Positions 22,751 to 28,760 of a stretch of DNA of 38,215 nt are shown piece by piece. Made by a program: the position numbers and the translations under genes. Position 1 is the first letter of the stretch. Every line of letters starts with the position of its first letter. The notes beneath the pieces were generated by a model, which saw only the letters and a program-made list of their open reading frames with translations, did no database searches and had not been told where the DNA came from. Source of the stretch: a virus (Duplodnaviria; Heunggongvirae; Uroviricota; Caudoviricetes); the IMG/VR virus record IMGVR_UViG_2671180710_000023, positions 1 to 38,215 of that record. One strand, 5' to 3'.

Positions 22751-23397
22751 TTCTGTAATCCTTCCCGTTCATCCAGTAGCGCGTTTATCTGGTTCCGCCA
22801 GCGACGACATTGCCCTGCGTTGTCGATGATGTTGGCGAGAACGTCACGCTGGGAGACGCCTGAGTCGCGTAGCCAGGCGTCAGCGGTTTCAGGTTGCCCG
22901 GTCGCTGCGCCAGTGCCGGTGCCAGCGGCGGCAACTGAGTCTGAATGACCGCTGTCGACGGATGCGTTGTCATATCCGAGTGCGGCGTTGTACTGGCGCA
23001 CGAAACCGCGAGTAAACACGCACTCAATGGGATGGCTCTTACCTTTTTCATCAATCCAGCGCTGTGTGACATCGTTAATTTGCCCCTGTAGTTGTTTGTT
23101 CTGACTCTCCAGTTGAGCAATCTGCCCAAGATAACCGGCCTCAGCCCGTTGCCCGGCGGCCACCTGCTCCTGATACCGTCTGGCCCAGGCCCGCAGTGCA
23201 GCGTTCTCAAGCGTTGTCTGCTCTGTTTTGTACGTGTCGAATGCTGACTGCAACTGGCTGAGCGCGATATCACCGTCACGCTTTGCAGAGTCATGACCAC
23301 TTCTGTATCCCATGGCATACAGGCCGACCAGAAAGGCATTGATAAGAATGGCCAGCAGAATGCCGCGCCACGGTAGATTTTTAACCAGATGCCACAC
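22747..23397 (-). CDS. i-spanin (Rz-like)
   Basis: Probable GTG start at 23397 with GGAGG 8 nt upstream; N-terminal TM (WRGILLAILINAFLVGLYAMGY), long coiled-coil periplasmic domain; follows endolysin. Confidence 0.65.
   Translation of the reverse strand: MWHLVKNLPWRGILLAILINAFLVGLYAMGYRSGHDSAKRDGDIALSQLQSAFDTYKTEQTTLENAALRAWARRYQEQVAAGQRAEAGYLGQIAQLESQNKQLQGQINDVTQRWIDEKGKSHPIECVFTRGFVRQYNAALGYDNASVDSGHSDSVAAAGTGTGAATGQPETADAWLRDSGVSQRDVLANIIDNAGQCRRWRNQINALLDEREGLQK
22785..23051 (-). CDS. o-spanin (Rz1-like lipoprotein) embedded in alternate frame of Rz
   Basis: MKKVRAIPLSACLLAVSCAS... signal peptide with lipobox-like AVSC then Pro-rich mature region; wholly inside the Rz gene. Confidence 0.55.
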   Translation of the reverse strand: MKKVRAIPLSACLLAVSCASTTPHSDMTTHPSTAVIQTQLPPLAPALAQRPGNLKPLTPGYATQASPSVTFSPTSSTTQGNVVAGGTR

Positions 23398-24121
23398 AGC
23401 TGCTGCCTCCCCATGTGAGATATCGCGGTGCCAGCTCGTGCAGGATGCGCTGCGGATAATGGCGGTTCTCCCGCCAGCTGGCCGCATTGCGTCCGGCATT
23501 CACCGTGGCGACATGTCCGAACCAGCGGGTGCTGTCCAGACCTTTCTGTGATGCAAGCCGCCTGTCCCGTTGTACCCAGCCCAGACCACCGTTATAGCCC
23601 GACAGTGTCATGGCCATACGCTCGCAGTCACTGGCGGCGCTGACACGCTGCCACAGCCAGCGGTCATAGCTGACCAGCGCCCGGATAGCCCATGCCGGAT
23701 TAAACGGCTCACGACTGCTCAGCATCGGTATCAACTGGCTTATCCAGTCGGCAGTGGCAGGCATGAACTGCGCCAGTCCCTGAGCGCCAGCCGGCGAGAT
23801 CGCATCAGGTCGCCAGCCGCTTTCCTGATGCAGTTGCGCGGCGAAATCGGCCACCGGCGCAGACAGTCCCCATTCAAGCCGGGCATTACGGATCACATCA
23901 TCGCGATACTGCAGCGCAGCCTGCGGAGGTTGTGCTGCGCATGCCTGGCTGAAAAAGCCGCCACACCAGAGCAACATTGCGACAAAGAATACCCATGCCA
24001 TATGAACCAGAAAGGTCCCGGCGCGGACTGACAGGCGTTCGGTTCTGATGAAGACCCGAAAGGCTTCGAAAGCCAGTTTCAGGGACATGCATACAATCCA
24101 GGTGATCTGCGGCCAGTTCAT
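23381..24121 (-). CDS. Endolysin, lytic transglycosylase (SLT-domain) type with N-terminal signal-anchor
   Basis: Hydrophobic N-terminal segment (MAWVFFVAMLLWCGGFF) then HQESGW catalytic-Glu motif region and GAQGLAQFMP typical of SLT domains. Confidence 0.7.
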   Translation of the reverse strand: MNWPQITWIVCMSLKLAFEAFRVFIRTERLSVRAGTFLVHMAWVFFVAMLLWCGGFFSQACAAQPPQAALQYRDDVIRNARLEWGLSAPVADFAAQLHQESGWRPDAISPAGAQGLAQFMPATADWISQLIPMLSSREPFNPAWAIRALVSYDRWLWQRVSAASDCERMAMTLSGYNGGLGWVQRDRRLASQKGLDSTRWFGHVATVNAGRNAASWRENRHYPQRILHELAPRYLTWGGSSCVASG

Positions 24122-24123
24122 GA

Positions 24124-24474
24124 TTAAAGCCCCATCGCAACAGCCAGGCAGACCGCTGCAACAATCAGTGCACGGCGGATTAACGCAGCAGAAAACACCA
24201 GGTGAAGGCCGGTCTGTACCGGGAAACGCCCTTCAGCCATCAGCCTGTCGTCATGTTTCAGGTACTGACCGGGACGGGCTTTGGGGAAGAGCGAACGGTC
24301 AAGCCAGTAACCCAGCACTGCTGCCAGCGTGATGAGTGCCAGCTTGTAGATCACAACAGGCAGCTGCTGTGGTGAGACCAGAGCGATGGTGCCCAGCAAC
24401 AGCACTGAGGTCAGCAGCCAGCCGCTGAGGCGAGGTTTTTTAACAGGGGGAATGAATTTTTTCAGGTTTTTCAT
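24124..24474 (-). CDS. Holin-like membrane protein (first gene of late/lysis transcript)
   Basis: ATG at 24474 with GAGGAG RBS; 2-3 predicted TM helices; immediately upstream of endolysin. Confidence 0.55.
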   Translation of the reverse strand: MKNLKKFIPPVKKPRLSGWLLTSVLLLGTIALVSPQQLPVVIYKLALITLAAVLGYWLDRSLFPKARPGQYLKHDDRLMAEGRFPVQTGLHLVFSAALIRRALIVAAVCLAVAMGL

Positions 24475-24604
24475 GTGTGTCTCCTCGTTTGGTGGAGACA
24501 GCATCACAAATACAGGGCGCAAAGGATTTTAAAGCGCGTTAAGAGAGCCGAGGATACGGGATGTGCAGGATAAACGATGAATTATTCACAGAGGAGAATA
24601 CGAT

Positions 24605-25081
24605 ATGACGCACACACTGAATCCGGTCATCACTGTCACTGTGTCAGGTCCTGTGGGCAGCGGTAAAAGTTACGTACTGGCGCGGATAGAAGAGATGGTG
24701 AAACAGGAACTCGGAAACAGCGTCATTGTCGATGCTGCTGACGTGGAGAATGAGCGCCGTATGAATGGCGAAGATCTGACGACCTGGCAGAAGCCACGGG
24801 GTGGCACAGTGATCAGGCTAGAGGAATACACGGGACAGGGCCTGTTGTCATACGGCGAGGAGCGTATCTGTCGGACGAATGAGCTGCTGGATGTTATATG
24901 CCCCACGGGCCGGCAACCCTGGATACTGCCCGATGCACTGCATGCCACCATTGCGGCACTGATGACAGTTTACGATCAGGAGCTGCTCATGAAGGAGTTA
25001 CGTAAACTCACCGGTCAGCCAACAGAATGTTGTTCGTCTCCGAAGTACGGCAAACAGGAAAACGCCCCGGATAATCCTTAA
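24605..25081 (+). CDS. Small P-loop NTPase / nucleotide-kinase-like protein (accessory gene)
   Basis: Strong RBS (GAGGAG); Walker A GPVGSGKS at residues 15-22 and Walker-B-like VIVDAAD ~20 residues later; orientation opposite to flanking operons. Confidence 0.5.
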   Translation: MTHTLNPVITVTVSGPVGSGKSYVLARIEEMVKQELGNSVIVDAADVENERRMNGEDLTTWQKPRGGTVIRLEEYTGQGLLSYGEERICRTNELLDVICPTGRQPWILPDALHATIAALMTVYDQELLMKELRKLTGQPTECCSSPKYGKQENAPDNP

Positions 25082-25100
25082 GATACCTCCTGAGCAGAAA

Positions 25101-25116
25101 CAGCCCTGAAGGGCTG
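25101..25116 (-). terminator. Possible weak terminator hairpin between convergent genes
   Basis: CAGCCC-TGAA-GGGCTG stem-loop; on the minus strand followed by TTTCTGCT, just after the stop of the 196-aa gene; no clean U-run. Confidence 0.3.
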
Positions 25117-25118
25117 CA

Positions 25119-25709
25119 CTAAAAAAAGAAGTGTATTATTGCCCAAACAGCTATAACGATGATTCCCAGCCCAAGAGCCGATTCTAACTTATCTTTGGCA
25201 GTCATTTTTACTGTTGTAGCGGGCGCAGGTAAGTCTTGCTGCTGTGGATTTTCTGTTAGTTGTTTACGAGAAGAAACATCGCCCCTGTTAGTTTGCTTCA
25301 TGTTGATTACAGATGCGTTATGGGCATTATCAGCAGCAATTGACTGAAGTTTTACAAAAGTTTTTGAATCTGTTTTAGCCAGAAGTAACCTATTTCCCGT
25401 AAACATTGCCTTAAAAGTGATAGTTTTTTTCGTCTTGTCCGCCGCACCAAGCAAACCTCCAATGACCAACCCTGCACCACCAAAGATTAATCCACCAAGC
25501 AAACCTGCGCCTGCCGCCTTACCTATACGGCTTTCCTCTTCACTATCCGCAAGTTCAATCGATAAAAGCTCTTCTTTCAGATTTAATACAATATTTTCAG
25601 GAAAGCCTTGTTTTGGTTTTTTGGCAAACACGATGGTACCGAACCCCATGCTTGCCCACCCTTTAGGAAAACTTCCTGCGATAACCTGAATCCCTGCCAT
25701 GTTCATCAC
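25119..25709 (-). CDS. Glycine-zipper membrane protein (repressor operon, distal gene)
   Basis: AAGGTGA RBS; GKAAGAGLLGGLIFGGAGLVIGGLLGAA glycine-zipper hydrophobic segment plus C-terminal TM (LGLGIIVIAVWAIIHFFF). Confidence 0.55.
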   Translation of the reverse strand: MMNMAGIQVIAGSFPKGWASMGFGTIVFAKKPKQGFPENIVLNLKEELLSIELADSEEESRIGKAAGAGLLGGLIFGGAGLVIGGLLGAADKTKKTITFKAMFTGNRLLLAKTDSKTFVKLQSIAADNAHNASVINMKQTNRGDVSSRKQLTENPQQQDLPAPATTVKMTAKDKLESALGLGIIVIAVWAIIHFFF

Positions 25710-25790
25710 CTTTTACATTAAAATTTCAGAACGCAGCATGATGCCGCCTTTGTCTTTTTTCTGATCCCATGGTAATTCAGCTGTTATTTT

Positions 25791-26777
25791 CTATTTAAGA
25801 ATAAAACGGTACTTACTGTCAGGAGTGCTTTGCTGATCAAGTAGCAGTGAACGACATGGAGCAGTCAAAACCCGAGCATAACTACCATCAGGGCTTATGT
25901 TAATGTAACAAACCTTGCCCTTAACACTATAATTTTCGGGGACGGATGCCTTTGCTGATACAGTAAATTTAAGGGTATGCCAGCCCGTTTTTTGCTTGTA
26001 GCTTGAAACCGAATGGAAATCATCTGAGTACTTATTTAACCCTGGAAACATGCTGCGCAGTGCGGGGATGGAATCTTCTATTATTTTATCGTTGGTTTTA
26101 ATGTTAAAAACGCTGGTTTCAGTAGAAGCTACTGCTTTGGCATTTCCCCATTTACCAGCGAACACAATCATTCCCACGAAAAATATTGCTACAAGAACTA
26201 ACACTCCCCCCAACACTACTACATGAGGCTTCCGGCTTCTGGTTGGTACAGTTGCGACTGATTTTGCACCGCTTTCCGATGGAGGTGATAGAGTTTTACT
26301 CTCATCACGAATATTCAGCAGATCATCAAAATAACCAAACACAGCCTGCAACTGCTCTTTGTCTAGGCCTTTAAGATGGGTTGTACCGAAATGCTTCAGA
26401 CAGTATCTGTCACGGTCAAGACGATACCCAGGGTCAGTAAGCGCCATTATTTTGCTGACCAGAAGATTACAGTCCTTCATATTCTGGATCTGTTGTGCAT
26501 ATCTCTGAAGGATCTCAACCGCACCATGATAATCAGCCGCAGTCATTTCATTAACTGTTTTGGTATTAAGTTTCGTGTGGATCGTCATCCATAGCTCGCG
26601 CTTACTTTCCCCCAGATCAACCAATTCATCCATCAATCTGTGTAAATCGCGTTTTTGCAGCAACGAAATTGGTTGCTGGGCCGAAGGAAGTATGTCAGCA
26701 GAATAGTTATGAATGGTAACATCACCGCTGACAACGTTACCCACATCCCCGTTAACTGTTTGCTTCTCTTTACTCAT
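25791..26777 (-). CDS. Single-pass membrane protein (repressor operon, translationally coupled to repressor)
   Basis: ATGA overlap with repressor stop; ~180-aa cytoplasmic N-domain, TM helix (VVVLGGVLVLVAIFFVGMIVFAG), ~120-aa C-domain; AT-rich codon usage unlike structural genes. Confidence 0.55.
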   Translation of the reverse strand: MSKEKQTVNGDVGNVVSGDVTIHNYSADILPSAQQPISLLQKRDLHRLMDELVDLGESKRELWMTIHTKLNTKTVNEMTAADYHGAVEILQRYAQQIQNMKDCNLLVSKIMALTDPGYRLDRDRYCLKHFGTTHLKGLDKEQLQAVFGYFDDLLNIRDESKTLSPPSESGAKSVATVPTRSRKPHVVVLGGVLVLVAIFFVGMIVFAGKWGNAKAVASTETSVFNIKTNDKIIEDSIPALRSMFPGLNKYSDDFHSVSSYKQKTGWHTLKFTVSAKASVPENYSVKGKVCYINISPDGSYARVLTAPCRSLLLDQQSTPDSKYRFILK

Positions 26778-27235
26778 CTTCTCTTGGTATTTTTGTTCAC
26801 TATTCCACCTGTTCCTATGGTTACGTTACCTTTGATAACATTCCCCAGAACATCTCCATGAATAACCTGTTCCGCCCGTTCTCTGGAGGAGCCAGTAGTC
26901 AAGGCCGACAAAACTGAACCTTTGACCTGTAATGGTGCCTGCCGGTAGTGCTGCAGTAACTCCATTTCATCACGTGATAAAGTTATACCTGATGACTCCC
27001 CGGTAAGAATGAACTGTACATTGGCCCCAATTCTTGCAAAGGCTGCAAGTAACTCACCTCCGGGAACAGCAACCCCTCGTTCATATTTCCCCCACATTTC
27101 TCTTGAAACGCCACAAAGGGCTGCTACTTCAGCCTGCTTGAGTGATAACCGCGAACGCTCAGCTTTGAACCGCGACGCGCAAAGAGAATCAAAATTCACA
27201 TAAACCTCATTGACAATGAGAACTATAGTTCTCAT
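26774..27235 (-). CDS. XRE-family HTH repressor (c-repressor analogue)
   Basis: HTH_3-like LSLKQAEVAALCGVSREMWGKYERGVAVPGGELLAAFARIGANVQFIL; divergent from Ner-like gene across operator-bearing promoter; true start may be GTG near 27199. Confidence 0.7.
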   Translation of the reverse strand: MRTIVLIVNEVYVNFDSLCASRFKAERSRLSLKQAEVAALCGVSREMWGKYERGVAVPGGELLAAFARIGANVQFILTGESSGITLSRDEMELLQHYRQAPLQVKGSVLSALTTGSSRERAEQVIHGDVLGNVIKGNVTIGTGGIVNKNTKRR

Positions 27236-27238
27236 AAT
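27210..27238 (+). promoter_or_regulatory. Early promoter (TTGACA-17-CATAAT) with embedded perfect palindromic operator TGAGAACTATAGTTCTCA (27217-27234)
   Basis: Consensus -35, 17-bp spacer, near-consensus -10 about 45 bp upstream of ner-like ATG; 7-4-7 perfect inverted repeat spans spacer and -10. Confidence 0.6.
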
Positions 27239-27285
27239 CTATCACATATAAAACAAACATCATTGCATCAACAAAGGAGACAACA

Positions 27286-27474
27286 ATGACTTCCGAACAA
27301 GTTAAAAATCTCTTCCGTCAGCGTGGTATCACGTTTACCCGCTGGGCCGAAGAACACGGCTACAGCCGCAATGAGGTCTATCGTGTTCTCAATGGACAGA
27401 CCAAAGCTCGTTACGGCAAAGCCCATGAAATTGCTGTAAAACTGGGATTAAAACCCACGTCAAATGCGGCATAA
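27286..27474 (+). CDS. Ner-like small DNA-binding protein (Cro analogue)
   Basis: 62 aa; AAAGGAGA RBS; pattern ITFTRWAEEHGYSRNEVYRVL...GKAHEIAVKLGLKP resembles Mu Ner/Nlp HTH; first gene of early operon. Confidence 0.6.
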   Translation: MTSEQVKNLFRQRGITFTRWAEEHGYSRNEVYRVLNGQTKARYGKAHEIAVKLGLKPTSNAA

Positions 27475-27835
27475 ATTTTCCACATATGCAACAGGTTATC
27501 ACATATTGCAAAAATGGAAATGTGACATGAGTAAAGTAAATATTTCCAGTTCTGGGACCCGCATCCTACGTGTACTCAAAGCTCTACGCGGTCATGCTCT
27601 GAACGGTGTTTCTAACGGTGAACTGGCATCAGCCCTGGGGGAGTCCCCGGCGAATATCAATCGAGCACTTAATACCCTTATTGAAGAGGGACTGGCCATG
27701 AAATTAGAGAACGGACGTTTCGCACCGGGAATCCAGTTACTACAGATCGCCATGGCTCACAGTCACGAGATGGCGCGTGCACAGGATCGTATTAACGAAA
27801 TCAACCAACGAGTTATTTCAGGTAGTCGTTTGTAA
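27464..27835 (+). CDS. Winged-HTH protein (IclR-N-terminal-like DNA-binding domain)
   Basis: GTRILRVLKALRGHALNGVSNGELASALGESPANINRALNTLIEEGLAM fits wHTH; start may be ATG 27464 (overlapping ner stop) or 27527. Confidence 0.5.
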   Translation: MRHKFSTYATGYHILQKWKCDMSKVNISSSGTRILRVLKALRGHALNGVSNGELASALGESPANINRALNTLIEEGLAMKLENGRFAPGIQLLQIAMAHSHEMARAQDRINEINQRVISGSRL

Positions 27836-27845
27836 GGAGTAATCA

Positions 27846-28760
27846 ATGGGACGCACCAAATCACCCGTTAACACTGAACTGAATGTTGAGGTTCCGCTGT
27901 CAGATAACATCAATGTCAATTTGAACGCTATGACACAGCATCGCATGGAAATTATGCAGCAGTTTGGTGATGGACTGCCTTATGAACGTGATCGCATTGT
28001 TCACGAAGCACGTTTTTATATGGCGCAGAGTGCTGAATCTATGCTGGAAGCGGGTAAGCGGCTGATCATCTTAAAAGAAAATGAGCCACACGGTGATTTT
28101 ACAAACATTTTAGAAAATGAACTCGGACTTGCACCACAAGTTGCTCGCCGCATGATGCAAGCCAGTATGAAGTTTTTGGGAGAAGGTGATGAGCCAACAA
28201 AACGCTCAACGTTGAGCGTTTTGGGGAAAGCCAAACTGTACGACCTGATGGTTCTGGATAATGAAGAACTTGATGAATTGGCCGACGGCGGCACAGTTGC
28301 CGGCCTGACGCTTGACGACGTTGATCGCATGTCAGTACGTGAATTGCGTCAGGCCCTGCGCGAAGCGCGCGAAACCAACACAGCACAACAGCGCGTACTC
28401 GCCGACAAAAATGAAAAAATAGACTCACTCTCCACCAGACTGGAGAAGAAATCCCGTATTCAGCCACCTGAGCCTGATGAAGAGGTGAAGAAACTGCGGG
28501 CGGAAGTGACCGCGTTAGCGGTTGAGGCGGAATCTGCCATCGCCGTTCGACTGTCCAGCGCTTTTGAGACACTGTGCGCATATTGTGCTGAAAACATGAT
28601 TGATACCCCCAGAGACTTCATGGCAGGCCTGGTCTGTCAACTGGAAAGCACAGCGCGTAGCCTGCGCTCCACATTTGACCTGCCGGACGAGCCAACAGGC
28701 GATGTCGCGCCTTCATGGCTGACTGAGCCGACGCCACAGATTAACGGGCTGGAGGCATAA
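27846..28760 (+). CDS. Hypothetical early protein (304 aa) between ner and transposase
   Basis: Strong RBS (AAGGAG); acidic, coiled-coil-rich; no catalytic motif recognised. Confidence 0.5.
   Translation: MGRTKSPVNTELNVEVPLSDNINVNLNAMTQHRMEIMQQFGDGLPYERDRIVHEARFYMAQSAESMLEAGKRLIILKENEPHGDFTNILENELGLAPQVARRMMQASMKFLGEGDEPTKRSTLSVLGKAKLYDLMVLDNEELDELADGGTVAGLTLDDVDRMSVRELRQALREARETNTAQQRVLADKNEKIDSLSTRLEKKSRIQPPEPDEEVKKLRAEVTALAVEAESAIAVRLSSAFETLCAYCAENMIDTPRDFMAGLVCQLESTARSLRSTFDLPDEPTGDVAPSWLTEPTPQINGLEA

Follow-up and report, generated by a model that had tools for sequence, protein, structure and literature searches.

A stretch of phage DNA of 38,215 nucleotides (nt) (IMG/VR virus record IMGVR_UViG_2671180710_000023, positions 1 to 38,215; in the following called the window) encodes an XRE-family prophage repressor, which is followed on the same strand by the gene of a membrane protein of 328 amino acids (aa). 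The C-terminal tail of this repressor and the N-terminal head of the 328-aa protein carry a mirrored short tag, which is located at those ends of the two proteins that adjoin each other in gene order. The matching of tail and head appears to be a general rule, which we traced by sequence comparison in about 80 non-redundant prophage pairs of beta- and gammaproteobacteria. No prior description of tag-matched repressor/partner pairs was found in the literature searched. We see an even chance that the segment is an immunity cassette that consists of the repressor and a cognate membrane-anchored modulator of this repressor, followed by a separate gene of the PH_gly_zipper family that would be expressed in the lysogen. 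An earlier note on this DNA had read the 328-aa protein and the PH_gly_zipper protein as a candidate two-gene exclusion or abortive-infection module. It missed the most informative feature of the segment, which is the mirrored terminal motif tying the 328-aa protein to the repressor.

In the window the repressor ends with ...VIHGDVLGNVIKGNVTIGTGGIVNKNTKRR and the 328-aa protein starts with MSKEKQTVNGDVGNVVSGDVTIHNY. The open reading frames (ORFs) described in the earlier note all exist and lie on the minus strand, and, as stated there, the start of the 328-aa gene (ATG) overlaps the stop of the repressor gene (TGA), namely by 4 bp. A gene of the 328-aa type stands directly behind a tag-bearing repressor in every context read, and it overlaps the repressor stop in all contexts that were read with gene coordinates. 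The tag is the most conserved stretch of the 328-aa protein: the residues G10, G13, N14, V15, V16, S17, G18, V20, and I22 do not vary among 18 homologues with identities to the window protein as low as 44%. In the AlphaFold monomer model the first 30 residues are unstructured, with a predicted local distance difference test (pLDDT) below 50 for the tag. On the repressor side, the tag HGDVLGNVIKGNVTIG is conserved in all seven distinct linked repressors read. A homologous repressor of the Citrobacter type, behind which the partner is absent, lacks exactly the tag segment, as a clean deletion.

Three classes of tags were distinguished: class A, which is the window type with NGDVGNVVSGDVTIHN in the partner, class B (G..NR.AGRD[FY].E), and class C (QQFNGPVG.VT.GDVVN). 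The P2-like Escherichia phage 520873 (NC_049344) follows the same logic with another tag, since its repressor (gp04) ends with ...ISGGNNRIAGRDYNETKGR and the next ORF starts with MAVNSNGSNNRVAGRDFHE. Its Flk_N-type partner lies unannotated between the repressor gene and int (L036:3284-3896), and the partner gene is split by a frameshift into ORFs of 55 and 115 aa; intact copies of 216 aa are common in viral contigs. Loci of class B were collected with a DNA pattern scan of viral contigs that gave at least 120 loci, and all class-B counts refer to the loci listed. Two tag copies on the same strand are present in 63 of the 120 listed loci, mostly 70-95 nt apart, and of 79 ORFs that end in the tag, 77 have an ORF starting with it within the next 260 nt. 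This selection by tail comprises 47 non-redundant pairs. When the loci were selected by the partner instead, 62 of 69 non-redundant partners were above the cut-off for a matching upstream tail; among the seven below it, one (L101) is due to a mis-picked upstream ORF and is paired in the ORF-based scan. Class C was chosen solely via the head of the partner (QVAAGDI.N), and all 13 non-redundant Flk_N partners found in this way (13/13) stand behind a repressor ending in a QQFNGPVG.VT.GDVVN-type tail, where two-segment tails (...SGVSFNFGVG) go with two-segment heads. A pair from Burkholderia has its own variant VGQA[VI]Q, with EVGQAVQVEGD in the tail and PVGQAIQADQV in the head.

Local alignments of cognate tails and heads score 49-54 on average, and 51-56 for the tag of the window type, compared to a mean of 18.9 and a 99th percentile of 33 in the shuffled control, whereas cross-class alignments of B with A or C score 17-20 on average and are thus equal to the control; classes A and C are related to one another. 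Tail and head co-vary at the level of the class. The repressor of locus L065 is homologous to that of the window over the helix-turn-helix (HTH) and the linker (about 69% nucleotide identity over 244 nt), and its tail as well as the head of its partner are of class B, which we read as a coordinated swap of both. In 32 distinct DNA pairs, 60% of the identical tag residues use different codons, and the nucleotide identity is 65%. Because of these codon differences the similarity of the tags must be kept at the protein level and not by gene conversion. A relic of gene conversion or duplication was therefore rejected as the origin of the tags, which are, moreover, conserved in both proteins across distant lineages.

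All upstream proteins belong to one XRE-HTH family with a common arrangement of HTH, conserved helix, Gly/Ala/Ser-rich linker, tag, and Lys-rich end. The family is found at the repressor position of two unrelated phage types, which are BcepMu-like phages and P2-like phages, in the latter between cox and int. Hosts of the tagged pairs are gamma- and betaproteobacteria, including Pseudomonas, Serratia, Enterobacter, Kosakonia, Erwinia, Azonexus, and Thauera. The partners are of different kinds, namely tail-anchored Flk_N proteins, proteins with a zinc ribbon and two transmembrane (TM) helices, and helical proteins with two TM helices, but all are membrane-anchored with the tag in the cytoplasm. 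The tagged partners without Flk_N domain (L074, L091, L111, L113, L057, L068, L045, L154, and others) are small and have either a CxxC...CxxC zinc ribbon or a helical segment in front of the two TM helices. In the loci L049 and L094 the ORF immediately upstream of the Flk_N partner encodes a small membrane protein, which suggests two tandem partner genes behind one repressor. The two class-B tag copies (L037-L156) are spaced by a number of nt exactly divisible by 3 in 19 of the 32 distinct pairs, with about 11 expected, the pairs not being phylogenetically independent. Where such class-B ORFs share one frame, without an indel between the tags, readthrough of the stop codon could occasionally fuse the repressor to its partner. 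In the window, no slippery site for a fusion of repressor and partner by -1 frameshift or readthrough was seen by eye.

The 328-aa protein matches phrog_10002 over its full length (8e-228), and 24 homologues are present in Enterobacterales. The single membrane pass claimed for it by the earlier note agrees with the AlphaFold model, in which one hydrophobic helix separates two confidently predicted domains (Table 1). Its cytoplasmic domain is homologous to Flk_N: residues 19-147 match the NCBIfam model Flk (NF007987) with 2.9e-12, BLASTP against Flk of Escherichia coli K-12 gave 1e-5, and homologues carry the precomputed Pfam domain PF27202 (Flk_N). With 46.6 bits compared to an NCBIfam cut-off of 353, the 328-aa protein is not a full-length equivalog of Flk. 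In the host, Flk regulates the flagellar export switch as a tail-anchored cytoplasmic protein (PMC13344023; PMC6794478). The N-terminal domain of this host protein (L006:12951-13946, E. coli K-12 flk) recurs in many tail-anchored prophage proteins, a large family encoded behind repressors, and judged by this similarity Flk may be derived from, or have common ancestry with, phage anti-repressor-like proteins. An exhaustive profile search gave 114 cluster representatives that fall into two families, the first with a short N-terminal motif, the Flk_N domain, and a C-terminal TM helix in about 190-220 aa, and the second consisting of the periplasmic domain by itself. A sequence search of solved structures with the 328-aa and the 193-aa PH_gly_zipper protein gave nothing below E 0.07. 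The Flk_N-type domain also resembles annotated anti-repressors. Fifteen of 27 class-B relatives match phrog_245 ("anti-repressor Ant"; best E 2.3e-8) and seven of the 27 match phrog_2127 ("anti-repressor"), and one or other of these profiles is also matched by four of 18 members of the window protein's own family. Matches of Flk_N-type proteins to Pfam ORF6C are weak (E about 0.01).

The C-terminal domain of the 328-aa protein also occurs as a stand-alone protein behind lipoboxes or signal peptides and is therefore assigned to the periplasm. In Klebsiella phage KP12, a lipoprotein consisting of this domain is encoded directly after the repressor (L035:3486-4019). The stand-alone lipoprotein or secreted family, with a PGLDKY motif and two Cys residues, was also seen in P0041, P0045, P0049, P0053, P0064, and others. 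A lipoprotein gene directly after the repressor is typical of exclusion lipoproteins. The KP12 arrangement and the variable cargo in the slot behind the repressor would thus fit independent genes for lysogenic conversion or superinfection exclusion (compare K139 Glo, Cor, and SieB), where the tag only co-localizes or stabilizes the partner and the repressor is not regulated. However, the tags on the repressor side are conserved in the approximately 80 pairs, and loss of the tag segment coincides exactly with absence of the partner. Furthermore, the tail-anchored partners have no periplasmic part at all, and therefore an envelope-facing exclusion role cannot be general. Altogether we regard this explanation as unlikely.

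We favor a core unit in which the XRE repressor is coupled translationally to the 328-aa inner-membrane protein. The latter would be composed, in this order, of the cytoplasmic tag mirroring that of the repressor, the Flk_N-like helical domain, one TM helix, and a periplasmic domain of the disulfide type. As far as the sequences allow such a statement, the tags of repressor and partner probably associate physically, for which homotypic pairing of beta-strands could be used. Synthesis of both tags from neighboring sites of a common mRNA could favor pairing in cis. The comparison with phage PhiKM narrows down what else could read the tags. In blastn PhiKM shares both flanks of the segment, positions 24000-25069 with 96.8% and 27234-28192 with 84% identity, but the interior is unrelated, and the region 25070-27233 is therefore considered a swapped cassette. 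Because only the cassette differs between the immunity types, any phage-encoded reader of the tags should lie within it, and a phage-encoded reader in the flanks, which are common to PhiKM with its different cassette, is unlikely. With the reader confined to the cassette, direct contact of tail and head is favored.

That the partner has a regulatory consequence for the repressor is possible, although we would put it somewhat below an even chance. The partner could hold the repressor at the membrane or release it there, and in this way tune the availability of the repressor. It would then act as a membrane-anchored anti-repressor or sensor, similar to a membrane anti-sigma factor, and its periplasmic domain would be the input. 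The effect on the repressor could be sequestering, stabilizing, delivery to a protease, or templating. The PH_gly_zipper protein of 193 or 196 aa would be a separate and facultative occupant of the slot behind this unit and would be expressed in the lysogen. The templating variant, in which the mirrored tags would serve for templating in the manner of a prion or a beta-solenoid, seems distinctly unlikely to us. According to it, the partner would cluster upon envelope or periplasmic stress or superinfection, and its N-terminal tags would nucleate and recruit the tag of the repressor. The repressor would thereby pass into an inactive membrane-bound assembly, leading to prophage induction, and the tag classes would give orthogonality between co-resident prophages.

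Several observations weigh against a partner that controls the repressor via the tags. The 328-aa protein of the window itself has no match to the anti-repressor PHROGs at E <= 1, and these matches come from its relatives only; moreover, the "anti-repressor" names of the PHROGs are annotations and not functional tests. A lysogen needs active repressor, and therefore constitutive sequestration is not the whole story. Inside class B there is no co-variation at the level of residues, as cognate tags share 9.38 and non-cognate tags 9.26 identical residues of 13, and 787 of 5000 permutations attained the value observed. The specificity of the tags, if any, is therefore coarse. Finally, a fourth group of Flk_N proteins (NFGTQ heads, L214-L223) stands behind repressors of the same family that have no mirrored tag. 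These repressors end in a conserved helical domain (...ILKLVVNR), and their partners have an extra helical N-terminal extension and a G.GN..NFGTQ.NI motif. A mirrored tag as universal property of Flk_N partners was rejected on the basis of this group, and the adjacency of repressor and partner is therefore more general than the tag.

The missing fine-scale co-variation within a class would also suit tags that do not bind each other, but are both recognized by one host factor, for instance a protease, an adaptor, or a chaperone, so that the membrane copy is a decoy or competitor that sets the turnover of the repressor. Mu-family repressors are under the control of ClpXP and Lon through their C-termini, and the tags are exposed and unstructured. 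Nevertheless, several tag classes coexist in prophages of E. coli, which makes a single host reader less parsimonious, and we consider a host reader very unlikely.

The repressor protein matches the repressor families phrog_8 and phrog_2328, and its gene is divergent from the ner-like/transposase operon. The annotated start, ATG 27235, sits within the -10 box of the divergent early promoter, and translation probably starts at GTG 27199, which would give 141 aa, as in homologues that begin with "MNFDSLCA" at a GTG. The annotated ATG also falls within a 34-bp imperfect palindrome, the candidate operator, which extends across the right cassette junction (27233/27234), so that only its last 9 bp belong to the conserved flank and the remainder, with the perfect core AGAACTATAGTTCT, belongs to the cassette. 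These features also bear on an addiction or toxin-antitoxin-like module, in which the membrane partner would be toxic and neutralized by the repressor tail, so that loss or inactivation of the repressor would free a membrane toxin. The upstream XRE-HTH gene with its 4-bp overlap and the unstructured C-terminal tail of its product are reminiscent of such modules, the repressor shows weak HTH-level matches to the antitoxin models MqsA, HipB, and PezA, and the small partner variants with two TM helices look like holins or toxins. Yet the HTH protein is encoded at the main repressor position, with the palindrome over the early promoter, the downstream protein has no match to a toxin family in Pfam, NCBIfam, or PADLOC, and the Flk_N domain is related to Flk and anti-repressors, not to toxins. 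A toxic partner is thus highly improbable.

The third gene most likely starts at ATG 25700, giving a protein of 193 aa. We prefer this start to the GTG at 25709 because of the AAGGTG Shine-Dalgarno sequence, the agreement with RefSeq, and the profile length of phrog_12025. From there, the gap to the 328-aa gene is 90 bp instead of the 81 bp given before. The glycine zipper GKAAGAGLLGGLIFGGAGLVIGGLLGAA and the hydrophobic C-terminus were likewise found in the ORF 25119-25709. The 193-aa protein matches phrog_12025 with 2.4e-128, and the precomputed Pfam domain PF27000 (PH_gly_zipper) is assigned to the homologues P0026, P0027, P0032, P0033, and P0036, as a weak match in those cases that bear a mark of strength. 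In PADLOC, NCBIfam, and a Pfam copy without PF27000, the 193/196-aa protein had no match. The phrog_12025/PF27000 family is small and comes from Bcepmuvirus prophages of E. coli, Citrobacter, Morganella, and Burkholderia, with a SHOCT domain in place of the C-terminal TM helix in the Burkholderia homologue. A tblastn search of isolated phages with the 193-aa protein gave no match, and the Burkholderia homologue matched isolated phages via its SHOCT tail only. The AlphaFold model (pLDDT 42.6) was too poor and not used for a fold search; its secondary structure, in which the glycine zipper breaks the beta-strands and a long helix and the tail anchor follow, would agree with a PH-like fold, but is unreliable. 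The weak hairpin described behind the last gene exists, but it does not stand out from shuffled sequences (z = -1.06) and received no call in the terminator scan. The spacer upstream of the 193-aa gene (25714-25790) aligns with the end (approximately 35 nt) of the gene for the Citrobacter-type CI-like repressor and with the spacer following this gene, which is moderate evidence and suggests a recombination joint or scar from the replacement of one repressor type by another.

It is improbable that the two membrane-protein genes form a defence system of two parts. Salmonella-type, Yersinia, and Serratia prophages have the 328-aa gene but not the 196-aa gene, the next gene being unrelated or absent, and in 27 E. 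coli genomes a copy with 93.5% identity is followed by an unrelated 203-aa gene. Vice versa, Citrobacter-type Bcepmuvirus prophages have a member of the 193-aa family without the 328-aa gene, behind another repressor of the CI type. What occupies the slot after the repressor varies altogether, and it can be a gene for 94, 203, or 249 aa, a lipoprotein gene, or nothing. Nevertheless, the two genes are not completely independent, because the trio of repressor, Flk_N protein, and PH_gly_zipper protein, followed by the holin, recurs in a BcepMu-like prophage of Burkholderia savannae; homologues of both membrane proteins are also present on one Morganella contig. From this distribution, our conclusion is that the third gene would be an old but dispensable occupant of the slot and not an obligate partner.

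From the Rex-like sensor/pore interpretation in the earlier note, the placement downstream of the repressor remains, but the obligate pairing of sensor and effector does not, as the genes are separable and match neither Rex nor defence families. According to this interpretation, the 328-aa and 196-aa proteins would depolarize the membrane upon superinfection or exclude an incoming phage. Both membrane proteins are in fact encoded behind the repressor on the same strand, glycine zippers are known from pore-forming toxins, and the trio recurs in prophages of E. coli, Morganella, and Burkholderia. Searches with hidden Markov models (HMMs) of PADLOC, Pfam, and NCBIfam, however, gave no Rex or defence family for either protein, the best E value in PADLOC being 0.014 for the 328-aa protein, with no match for the 196-aa protein; they gave no lysis, virion, or housekeeping family either. 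As either gene often occurs without the other, and as a Rex-like pair leaves the mirrored tags and the anti-repressor-like domain unexplained, we ascribe very little probability to it. In agreement with the earlier note, no terminator was called between the genes, and no above-chance promoter lies in between. Expression from the lysogenic transcript is plausible because the genes share one strand, are linked by translational coupling or a short gap, and have no called terminator between them. Thus, from its position it is plausible that the 193-aa gene is expressed in the lysogen, and a role of its product in exclusion or abortive infection is possible in view of this position and the glycine zipper.

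As a whole, the window represents a transposable E. coli prophage of the BcepMu-like type, and the region has 99.7% identity to prophages in the chromosomes of E. coli IAI39, CE10, and approximately 95 other complete genomes. The minus strand carries the virion genes, an Rz-like gene, the SLT endolysin, and the holin, with the repressor segment next to them. Diverging from this segment, the plus strand encodes a ner-like HTH protein, an IclR-type HTH protein, a DUF3102 protein, a DDE transposase, and an AAA+ protein. The BcepMu arrangement was assigned because of this gene order, and the related isolate PhiKM is classed as Bcepmuvirus. What the earlier note said about the surroundings proved correct: the G+C content of the segment is 0.43-0.45 compared to 0.54-0.60 in the structural region, the segment lies between the lysis genes (holin and SLT endolysin) on one side and the early operon on the other, and the assumed acquired cargo corresponds to the exchangeable low-G+C cassette. 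The range 24605-27235 considered there also holds a plus-strand ORF (24605-25081), which was left undescribed. This P-loop ORF is outside the repressor/partner module. It is cut at the left cassette junction (25069/25070), where the similarity to PhiKM stops; its match to phrog_3787 covers positions 1-157 of 242, and PhiKM carries the full-length gene for 242 aa. The positions of all features are summarized in Table 1.

Table 1. Features of the repressor segment and neighboring genes, in positions of the window.
Feature	Position	Strand	Remarks
SLT endolysin	23381-24121	-	lysis cassette
Holin	24124-24522	-	lysis cassette
Truncated P-loop ORF	24605..25081	+	RefSeq "ABC transporter ATPase"; 158 aa here, 242 aa in relatives
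Exchangeable immunity cassette	25070..27233	-	repressor, partner, third gene, hairpin; G+C about 0.43; blastn compared to PhiKM
Weak stem-loop	25100..25117	-	right after last stop codon; 7-bp G+C-rich stem, short U-containing tail
PH_gly_zipper-family protein	25119..25700	-	193 aa from ATG 25700; 196 aa from GTG 25709
C-terminal TM helix of 193-aa protein	~25122-25190	-	
Glycine zipper	~25440-25523	-	within 193-aa gene
328-aa single-pass membrane protein	25791..26777	-	putative cognate partner of the repressor; start overlaps repressor stop (ATGA)
Periplasmic alpha/beta domain of partner	25794..26117	-	residues ~221-328; pLDDT >90; PGLNKY motif; invariant Cys290/Cys308 pair
TM helix of partner	26157..26213	-	residues 189-207; hydrophobic model helix, Lys/Arg-rich on N-terminal side
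Cytoplasmic helical Flk_N-like domain of partner	26304..26687	-	residues ~31-158; pLDDT >90
N-terminal tag of partner	26709..26753	-	NGDVGNVVSGDVTIHN; invariant residues; cytoplasmic
XRE-family prophage repressor	26774..27235	-	153 aa from annotated ATG 27235; HTH_31 4.7e-7, HTH_3
C-terminal tag of repressor	26813..26860	-	HGDVLGNVIKGNVTIG, then Lys/Arg-rich tail; kept wherever 328-aa homologue follows
Imperfect palindrome, candidate operator	27209..27242		34 bp; spans divergent early promoter
Early promoter	27210-27238	+	TTGACA-17-CATAAT; beneath 34-bp palindrome

BcepMu-like and many P2-like phages have repressors without a LexA-like cleavage domain, and how such prophages leave lysogeny independently of the SOS response is poorly understood. 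The widespread and previously unremarked rule of matching tails and heads makes a membrane-coupled control of repressor availability testable. The tag-matched pair is akin to repressor-linked lysogenic operons, to membrane anti-factors, and to gene pairs with mirrored motifs. With lambda cI-rexA-rexB it has in common the location of the genes behind the maintenance repressor, on its strand, and at least one membrane protein as product. However, the sequences show no similarity, and Rex comprises a soluble protein (RexA) and one with four TM helices (RexB), whereas the genes of the window are separable and the first one is tied to the repressor by the mirrored tag. Membrane anti-sigma factors, such as RseA with sigma-E, show the same order of a regulator gene and a gene for a single-pass protein, the cytoplasmic N-terminus of which binds the regulator and the periplasmic domain of which is a possible sensor. 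They differ in that there is no homology, the target here is a phage repressor, the contact would be made by short mirrored tags, and many of the phage partners are tail-anchored with nothing in the periplasm. Flk shares the homologous N-terminal cytoplasmic helical domain and a membrane-anchored topology with cytoplasmic N-terminus, and most phage relatives are tail-anchored likewise. In contrast to the 328-aa protein, which has a periplasmic domain of 108 residues after the TM helix, Flk has two domain repeats, a chromosomal flagellar role, no mirrored tag, and no periplasmic domain; its phage relatives may nevertheless illuminate the biochemistry of Flk itself. As to phage anti-repressors (phrog_245 "Ant", phrog_2127, ORF6C), the HMM similarity is distant and links the Flk_N-type domain with the central region of these families, but known Ant proteins are soluble, are expressed from regulated operons of their own, and lack translational coupling to their target repressor.

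The mirrored tags themselves resemble those of amyloid-signaling pairs, as known from fungal HET-S/NWD2, bacterial BASS, and the E. coli prophage pair Bab/Agp (10.1101/2024.11.07.622273), in which the two proteins also share a short Gly/Asn/Val-rich motif, placed at the end of the upstream protein and at the start of the downstream one, and the motif classes also vary by lineage. A shared motif at adjoining termini is found in the window pair and in the approximately 80 non-redundant pairs. Amyloid motifs are beta-prone and comprise about 20-25 aa, in which G, N, Q, V, and I are over-represented and K, P, and L under-represented (10.1101/2020.01.06.895854). The composition of classes A and C fits this description, whereas class B (G..NR.AGRDY.E) is charged, with many Arg, Asp, and Glu residues. 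Neither the membrane-targeting death domain nor the NLR/TPR sensor that characterize the amyloid-signaling pairs was found in the tagged pairs, which have an XRE HTH and Flk_N or a zinc ribbon at these places. Hence, the upstream protein is a DNA-binding repressor and not a Bell or HeLo killing domain, and the downstream protein is a small membrane-anchored Flk_N or zinc-ribbon protein instead of an NLR/TPR sensor. If the tags act by templated assembly, the pair would be more distinct from the known kinds, and if it is true that they use homotypic beta-assembly, amyloid-type signaling would extend from immune cell death to transcriptional switches.

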